Source of the DNA: Promethearchaeota archaeon | Lineage (GTDB): Archaea; Asgardarchaeota; Lokiarchaeia; Sigyniarchaeales; SOKP01 | Length of the DNA stretch: 64,000 bases | Reading direction: 5' to 3' | NCBI GenBank assembly: GCA_029838195.1 | Contig: JALGVJ010000005.1 | Location: 32,001-96,000, forward strand | In this document: one piece after another, positions 11,806-15,672 of the stretch | Layout: each line of letters begins with the position of its first letter | Position numbering within the stretch: position 1 is the stretch's first letter | Notes under the pieces: generated by a model | Databases searched by the model: none | Told to the model about the DNA's origin: nothing | The model's input: only the letters and a program-made list of their open reading frames with translations | Made by a program: the position numbers and the translations under genes

Positions 11806-12013
11806 ATTCTTTTAATTTTTAAATTCTTTCTTTTCTTCATCTTTTAATTTTTTTCGTGAACTTTTTTTAGAGTTGTTTCGTGAATAAATGAAAACTAAGG
11901 ATATTAACGGAAAAAATTGTCGTGAATTCCTTTTAAATAAGTAAAAAGATAAATGAGGAGGGAAAAAATAGTTAGGTGTTAATAAGAAATATTTATTGGA
12001 GTAGGGAAAAGAA

Positions 12014-12171
12014 TGCCAAGGGGGGGAATTTCAAAAAACCCCGCAGGAGAGATTTTTTTTTGAACCCCCGATACCCAGATCACTGAAAGCATCATTTAAT
12101 AGAGTTTCTTCAGTCTGGTGCGTTCCCGGGTTGCGCAAATGTCTGGTAGACATTTCCTACGCCACCTTGGC
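12014..12171 (-). tRNA. tRNA-Phe(GAA) with three BHB introns (15/16, 37/38, 59/60)
   Basis: Removing 12156-12131, 12107-12081 and 12058-12028 gives a 74-nt cloverleaf: GCCAAGG TG GCGT AGCCCGGGA ACGC A CCAGA CTGAAGA TCTGG GTATC GGGGG TTCAAAT CCCCC CCTTGGC A. Confidence 0.93.
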
Positions 12172-12290
12172 ATGTTTTTCTTACGGGTGCTCCTCCAATT
12201 ACACTTTAACATTTTTTAATAAATACAAGTTAAAGAATTAGTAATCTCATATAAATTTTTTTCTTAGAGTTGTAAAAAAAGAGGAATGGA

Positions 12291-15303: not shown

Positions 15304-15437
15304 GAATTCTATAATGATTGCTAATTTAATAAATATACTATATTTTCAAAAAATAAGTCTACTCATTATATCCATTTCTCAATTTCCTAAAGAGAATACA
15401 ATAAAGAAATGAGGAAATTTATAATAATAAGAATAAA

Positions 15438-15528
15438 TGCGCCCACCGGGATTTGAACCCGGGTCGACGGCTTTCTTCGGAGATGAAATCCGTGGAAGGC
15501 CGCAATCCTACCACTAGACTATGAGCGC
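15438..15528 (-). tRNA. tRNA-Gly(TCC) with a canonical 20-nt intron at 37/38
   Basis: GCGCTCA...GCGGC CT TCC A[intron 15492-15473]A GCCGT...GGGTTCAAATCCCGG TGGGCGC A; BHB central helix CTTC/GAAG. Confidence 0.95.
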
Positions 15529-15672
15529 AAGTGTTATTTCGGGTTTTTCTTGAAATGTGTGAAGGAATTTATTTGCAATTGACCGATACAAATCATTTTA
15601 AGAATGATCGAATAATCATTATTATGATCTATAACACGACATTTAATTTTAATTTTGGGAATTTGAGAAGTC

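Follow-up and report, generated by a model that had tools for sequence, protein, structure and literature searches.

An apparently sole tRNA-Phe(GAA) gene interrupted by three BHB introns in an Asgard archaeon

The 158 nt from 12171 to 12014 on the minus strand of the window (the whole 64,000-nt stretch of DNA that was analysed) contain a tRNA-Phe(GAA) gene that is split into four exons by three introns. It is very probably a functional gene, and apparently the only tRNA-Phe(GAA) gene, of an Asgard archaeon whose EndA and RtcB would splice the three BHB introns. The introns, of 26, 27 and 31 nt at sites 15/16, 37/38 and 59/60, add up to 84 nt and leave a spliced product of 74 nt. This reading had been put forward in the first-pass annotation, and every length and helix given there proved to be correct, as did the intron share of 84 of the 158 nt when it was recounted. 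Before splicing, the minus strand begins 5' GCCAAGG and ends CCUUGGC-A 3', and CCA is not encoded. The stretch is intergenic, with no overlapping ORF of 70 aa or longer. In the order of transcription, the features are:

12212..12223 (-), candidate promoter, an A/T-rich TATA-like element TTTATTAAAAAA read from the sequence
12157..12171 (-), exon 1, tRNA positions 1-15
12131..12156 (-), intron 1, 26 nt, D-loop, site 15/16, relaxed HBh' motif
12108..12130 (-), exon 2, tRNA positions 16-37
12081..12107 (-), intron 2, 27 nt, canonical site 37/38, weak h'
12059..12080 (-), exon 3, tRNA positions 38-59
12028..12058 (-), intron 3, 31 nt, T-loop, site 59/60, strict hBHBh' motif
12014..12027 (-), exon 4, tRNA positions 60-73: U60, 3' strands of the T stem and the acceptor stem, discriminator A73
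12004..12013 (-), candidate archaeal terminator, a T-rich stretch TTCTTTTCCC read from the sequence

Exon 1 carries the 5' strand of the acceptor stem, U8, G9, the 5' strand of the D stem (GCGU), A14 and G15; it is matched at C38:44171-44157 in a blastn search with the spliced sequence, and nearly all orthologues are identical there. The remainder of the D arm, A26, the 5' strand of the anticodon stem and C32 U33 G34 A35 A36 G37 lie in exon 2. Exon 3 contributes A38, the 3' strand of the anticodon stem, the variable loop GUAUC, the 5' strand of the T stem and U54 U55 C56 A57 A58 A59. The putative TATA-like element is 41-52 nt upstream of the mature 5' end, and the T-rich stretch is directly 3' of A73. 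A 7-bp leader-trailer helix (ATTGGAG/CTCCAAT) flanking the gene was considered and set aside, because 12% of shuffles equal it and it is not conserved in the orthologues. The tRNA-Phe at locus L004 (G007:C457) differs from the gene here and from the remaining orthologues in its strong leader-trailer pairing (-26.6 kcal/mol; 1 of 100 shuffles was as good), and its GC-rich trailer may belong to an adjoining RNA gene.

A BHB motif was scored as a 4-bp central helix (H) between 3-nt bulges, each of which is cut after its second base (↓ below), with h denoting the exon helix and h' the intron helix. All three introns possess an H with four of four pairs and two 3-nt bulges, and each has flanking helices, with (h, h') values of (1, 8), (5, 2) and (5, 9) bp for introns 1, 2 and 3, respectively. 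Intron 1 combines H GCGU/GCGC with bulges AG↓G and AA↓C, an exon helix of a single base pair and an 8-bp intron helix, AAAUGUCU/AGACAUUU, which makes it a relaxed HBh' motif. Intron 2 pairs CUGA with UCAG as its H and has AG↓A and UG↓A as bulges; the 5-bp anticodon stem itself serves as h, and h' has 2 bp. Intron 3 is a strict hBHBh' motif, with H UUCA/UGAA, bulges AA↓A and AU↓U, the 5-bp T stem GGGGG/CCCCC as h, and a 9-bp h' that starts AAAAA/UUUUU. When each intron was shuffled, the full four-pair H arose in just 1.6-2.3% of trials, and H of four pairs together with an h' of at least 2 bp in about 0.2-0.3%. The precursor fold beats all 200 of 200 dinucleotide shuffles (z = -3.81). One conformer can accommodate the acceptor, anticodon and T stems along with all three BHB motifs; at -45.6 kcal/mol it is less stable than the minimum-energy fold of -56.4 kcal/mol (nearest-neighbour energy). 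Intron 2 was also considered as a guide RNA on account of a C-box-like AUGAUG; this was rejected, since no D box was seen by eye, the intron is only 27 nt long, and even the congener lacks it.

Could the D-loop intron be delimited differently? Shifted by one base, it would be a 24-nt intron whose removal leaves a 76-nt tRNA with an 11-nt D-loop, and a BHB in that register does exist (H 4 bp, h 2, h' 7), while ARAGORN accepts the 76-nt product. However, the orthologues, including those that are intron-free, have a 9-nt D-loop, AGCCCGGGA (AGCCUGGGA in three variants), which is precisely what the 26-nt version yields, and the intron hairpin of the 26-nt version is also longer. We therefore give the 24-nt alternative very little weight, and take intron 1 to be 26 nt.

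Removal of the 26-, 27- and 31-nt introns restores a canonical tRNA, as judged by the ARAGORN call, the cloverleaf fold and a near-identical intron-free orthologue. ARAGORN identifies the spliced 74-mer as tRNA-Phe(gaa), and its minimum-energy fold is an exact cloverleaf of -31.1 kcal/mol. U8, A14, G18 G19, G20, U33, G34 A35 A36, G37, G53, U54 U55 C56, A58, C61 and A73 can all be read directly from it. The anticodon loop is CUGAAGA, a loop of 7 nt containing the GAA anticodon, U33 and a purine at 37, as a tRNA-Phe should have. G20 and A73, both present, are Phe identity elements in other systems. Taken as a proxy for the covariance-model score of the spliced 74-mer, the intron-free orthologue L040, set apart from it by a single compensatory pair in the T stem, reaches 64.9 bits with the Rfam tRNA model (gathering score 29).

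Is this the only tRNA-Phe gene of the genome? The assembly is a draft of 4.5 Mb in 94 contigs, 96.6% complete and with an estimated contamination of 7.9%. Across the whole 4.5-Mb assembly, ARAGORN in intron mode reports 36 tRNA-like genes, none of them Phe, and the Rfam tRNA model at E up to 1 gives 35 matches, about 25 of them above the cut-off, with no GAA loop in a tRNA-Phe context. With the spliced sequence as query, blastn-short returns these four exons; its only other hits are in the T arms of different tRNAs and, by chance, on a 14-mer in coding-like sequence on contig C14. A regular-expression search for intron-free GAA anticodon arms has 37 matches, none in a tRNA context. We also ran a BHB-aware scan in which acceptor-stem anchors were sought in 3179 segments free of long ORFs, BHB candidates were enumerated, the products were passed through a cloverleaf filter and the survivors were confirmed by ARAGORN. 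Run blind, the scan recovered the same gene with the identical three introns, and it was the sole GAA tRNA. Its filter is strict, demanding U8, full pairing in the acceptor, T and anticodon stems, H = 4 and an h + h' of 3 or more, and it missed several of the ARAGORN and Rfam tRNAs, so that its counts are lower bounds: at least 29 loci, 9 of them intron-free, 13 with one intron, 4 with two and 3 with three. Since no other tRNA-Phe was found by ARAGORN, Rfam, blastn or the BHB-aware scan in this 96.6%-complete assembly, the gene at 12171..12014 is apparently the only tRNA-Phe of the genome.

The two further three-intron genes are tRNA-Pro(CGG) at C50:57770-57928 (-), with introns of 28, 28 and 30 nt in the D-loop, at 37/38 and in the T-loop, and tRNA-Leu(CAA) at C69:666-851 (-), with introns of 24, 47 and 31 nt. 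With these two in hand, the three-intron state is seen to be normal in this genome. Ser(GGA), Arg(UCU), Thr(GGU) and Tyr(GUA) tRNAs of the same genome have two introns each. The introns at about 58/59, each of about 30 nt, in tRNA-Pro(CGG) on C50 and in tRNA-Ser(GGA) at C3:48323-48454 both start TTTTCCAA and end GGAATA(T/A); this likeness could reflect either the constraint of the UUCA/GGAA helix or a common origin.

The first-pass annotation had expected standard scans to miss the gene, and both ARAGORN and Rfam are indeed blind to the unspliced form: the former gives no match, and a 600-nt search with the latter stays empty when E values up to 10 are allowed. The only tRNA that either program reports in the window is at 15437-15529 (-), with 55.6 bits in Rfam; by eye it is a tRNA-Gly(UCC) whose single intron, of 20 nt, occupies the canonical site 37/38. 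The ARAGORN label is 'tRNA-???' outside intron mode and changes to SeC(tca) within it. Compared with BHB-guided splicing, ARAGORN intron mode misassigns the anticodons of several interrupted tRNAs in the genome: the 'Stop(tta)' at C40:18101 is Gln(UUG), the 'Tyr(gta)' at C90:325 is His(GUG), the 'Leu(gag)' at C92:65773 is Asp(GUC), the 'Pro(cgg)' at C92:66770 is Arg(UCG), the 'Ser(tga)' at C19:82902 is Pro(UGG) and the 'Leu(taa)' at C91:28842 is Val(CAC). Because the apparently sole tRNA-Phe is invisible to both programs and several interrupted tRNAs are mislabelled by ARAGORN, the tRNA sets of such Asgard bins, and inferences on codon usage drawn from them, are unreliable unless the methods used are intron-aware.

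Orthologues were collected by a precursor search of relatives and an exon-pattern search of a species-genome collection; in addition, 80 genomes of the same family were searched with the intron-free orthologue and 20 extra regions were fetched. Introns were placed by alignment to the 74-mer, free of any motif, and BHB motifs were scored afterwards. The 78 gene records comprise 31 distinct spliced sequences, which are identical to the gene here at 67-74 of 74 positions. Stem variation is compensatory: one T-stem pair occurs as five standard pair types, and one anticodon-stem pair switches between C-G and U-A. The introns vary across the orthologues in number (0-4), site and sequence. Among about 50 resolved family genes, 14 have one intron, 19 have two, 13 have three and 4 have four, so that 17 have three or four; these counts are approximate, with a few T-arm boundaries poorly resolved, and the sample is non-random, its first 30 loci being the best BLAST matches and biased to few introns, and the next 20 having been picked for fragmented matches. 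More than 10 sites are used in the family, including 15/16, 19/20, 22/23, 30/31, 37/38, several in 49-54, and 58-60, and BHB motifs with an H of 3-4 pairs underlie nearly all of the introns. Intron-free tRNA-Phe genes are found in two Asgard genomes outside the family (L037 and L040). The first-pass annotation had regarded triple-intron tRNAs as rare and best known from Thermoproteales; the 17 family tRNA-Phe genes with three or four introns, the presence of at least two other three-intron tRNAs in the same genome, and cases already published for Asgard archaea run counter to that view in this lineage.

A decaying pseudogene that has accumulated insertions, with the working tRNA-Phe lying in an unassembled part of the genome, would be compatible with an assembly of this completeness and contig number, and draft bins do often miss tRNA genes. 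Against this, the exons are free of defects and, once joined, agree at every position with the spliced tRNA from ten other gene records, all three inserts lie exactly at BHB motifs, and most relatives, some of them with a completeness score of 100%, have no tRNA-Phe besides one of this interrupted form. Decay is therefore a very improbable explanation, and we regard the gene as functional. One relative, G049, has two tRNA-Phe loci with differing intron sets, L054 (contig C249) and L087 (contig C375), one locus with 19/20 only and the other with 15/16, 30/31 and 52/53; they are either two real copies or the product of mixed populations in the bin.

The three introns differ in how widely they are distributed. 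Site 15/16 is occupied in 14 other family genomes by introns of 28-39 nt that differ in sequence, and many family members have introns of about 30 nt at 59/60 whose kinship shows in a common layout of A-run, hairpin and T-run. The tRNA-Phe gene of the congener is syntenic, with homologues of the same two flanking ORFs; it has 15/16 and 59/60 introns that are visibly related to those here and lacks the one at 37/38. Introns at 37/38 occur in three other genera, where they are 20, 27 and 39 nt long and unrelated in sequence. No other gene among the approximately 50 resolved family orthologues has the combination of 15/16, 37/38 and 59/60.

Where, then, did the 37/38 intron come from? The 15/16 and 59/60 introns are common to the congener and many family members, and the 37/38 intron is specific to the lineage of the gene here. 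Allowing up to 3 mismatches, its sequence has no match in the 80 other family genomes (81 genomes searched, including its own). Transposition within the genome was considered and rejected, because a search for copies of any of the three introns elsewhere in the genome returned only chance matches of 12 nt or less. Absent from the congener, without a donor copy in those searches and unrelated to the 37/38 introns of the three other genera, the intron is somewhat better explained as a recent de novo gain in this lineage, gain and loss having been weighed by parsimony alone. How BHB introns enter genes is called an open question in published work. If a de novo gain did take place, the tRNA-Phe genes would constitute a dated natural series for BHB intron entry, extending from 0 to 4 introns and over more than 10 sites in about 50 closely related species.

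To what extent is the genome equipped to remove such introns? The EndA catalytic domain has three matches in the genome, and the RtcB ligase gene is present. The EndA alpha gene (L016:1459-2067:-) encodes a 202-aa protein with PF01974 and PF02778 whose nearest matches are catalytic subunits of heterotetrameric enzymes, that of Aeropyrum pernix foremost (3p1z_B, E 6e-36), along with those from Sulfolobus tokodaii and Pyrobaculum. It retains the Tyr/His/Lys residues in the alignment to 3p1z_B, and its K60 is opposite K44 of A. pernix, in an alignment that is ungapped over A. pernix residues 32-55. The EndA beta gene (L017:1201-1800:+) encodes a full-length, 199-aa protein, likewise with PF01974 and PF02778, that is closest in sequence to the M. 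kandleri and M. jannaschii proteins and has Ser at the position of the M. jannaschii catalytic His; such a His-less paralogue would fit the role of structural beta subunit. The enzyme is accordingly of the two-subunit type, with a catalytic alpha that carries the loop lysine and a His-less beta, in keeping with the suggestion in the first-pass annotation that EndA accepts relaxed motifs. Kaneta et al. 2018 (PMC5829648) state that a lysine in the specificity loop (A. pernix K44) confers relaxed, non-canonical intron cleavage, and that Asgard archaea have an (alpha-beta)2 EndA with this L1 loop. The third match is a 106-aa ORF, L018:1492-1812 (-), on G000:C53, which is nearly identical to the middle of beta and lacks both of its ends (the full beta is on C8); a truncated duplication, a pseudogene and the presence of a second strain in the bin are all conceivable origins.

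If the contig were a contaminant, the gene would come from a different organism than the EndA genes, which are on other contigs. The estimated contamination of 7.9% and the truncated second beta-like copy of EndA lend this idea some colour, yet the same locus is syntenic in the congener and the gene is of the same type in all family members. Any donor would have to be an equally intron-rich Asgard relative, which would leave the nature of the gene unchanged, and we consider contamination extremely improbable. Exact exon-pattern matches are confined to records of Promethearchaeota, Promethearchaeia, Odinarchaeota and Hodarchaeota and to MAGs labelled 'uncultured archaeon', and the host of the gene is an Asgard archaeon (Promethearchaeota).

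For this gene we infer expression, cleavage, ligation and their order as follows. The primary transcript would comprise the roughly 158 nt of the gene together with a leader and a trailer, and three local BHB structures could form in it beside the acceptor, anticodon and T stems. Every 3-nt bulge would receive a single cut from the alpha-plus-beta EndA; RtcB would then ligate the four exons and probably circularise the introns, and CCA would be added after splicing. Cleavage of the D-loop intron would be expected to depend on a broad-specificity enzyme, because intron 1 is almost without an exon helix h. All protein synthesis in the cell appears to hinge on three EndA/RtcB splicing events, one of which has to remove an intron with a relaxed HBh' motif from a non-canonical site. 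The first-pass annotation had seen in this gene independent support for an intron in the dnaG mRNA; the HBh' tRNA intron makes mRNA splicing, including that of the dnaG intron, plausible in an indirect way, as an independent pointer that the splicing machinery has the substrate range needed for mRNA mini-introns.

Several known systems resemble the one described here. In Sugahara 2008 and Fujishima 2010, as later work cites them, tRNA genes of Thermoproteales can likewise be interrupted at non-canonical positions by as many as three BHB introns, and these depend on an (alpha-beta)2 EndA with the crenarchaeal specificity loop. Related introns of Thermoproteales recur between genes, which has been taken as a sign of transposition, whereas no copy of the tRNA-Phe introns was found elsewhere in the genome here, nor any of the 37/38 intron in the 81 family genomes. 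The (alpha-beta)2 EndA of TACK and Asgard archaea (PMC5829648; 3P1Z) has the same Tyr/His/Lys alpha, a K44-aligned lysine and a His-less paralogue; compared with that (alpha-beta)2 enzyme with its L1/CSL loop, the enzyme here has a full-length beta subunit, and its activity and assembly are predicted from the genes. The closest likeness is with the multi-intron tRNAs of Asgard archaea. Valentin-Alvarado et al. 2024 (PMC11291895) reported introns in 92-95% of the tRNA genes of three complete Asgard genomes, more than half of those tRNA genes being multi-intron, often at non-canonical sites. The preprint of Goswami et al. 2026 (10.64898/2026.10.13.758758) covers 90 Asgard genomes with up to five intervening sequences per gene, many D-arm introns that tRNAscan-SE missed, and two EndA paralogues in most genomes, and the worked example in its Figure 2a is a tRNA-Phe(GAA) with three intervening sequences. 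As here, the introns in both studies are short (about 20-30 nt) BHB introns, many of them at non-canonical D- and T-arm sites, are missed by standard annotators and accompany a two-paralogue EndA. That published work centres on Atabeyarchaeia and Jordiarchaeia/Freyarchaeia, whereas the genome here belongs to another large family, which is not named in the main text of either PMC11291895 or 10.64898/2026.10.13.758758. The gene introduces no new principle: it is a further instance of the multi-intron tRNA type already described for Asgard archaea, to which it adds comparative detail.
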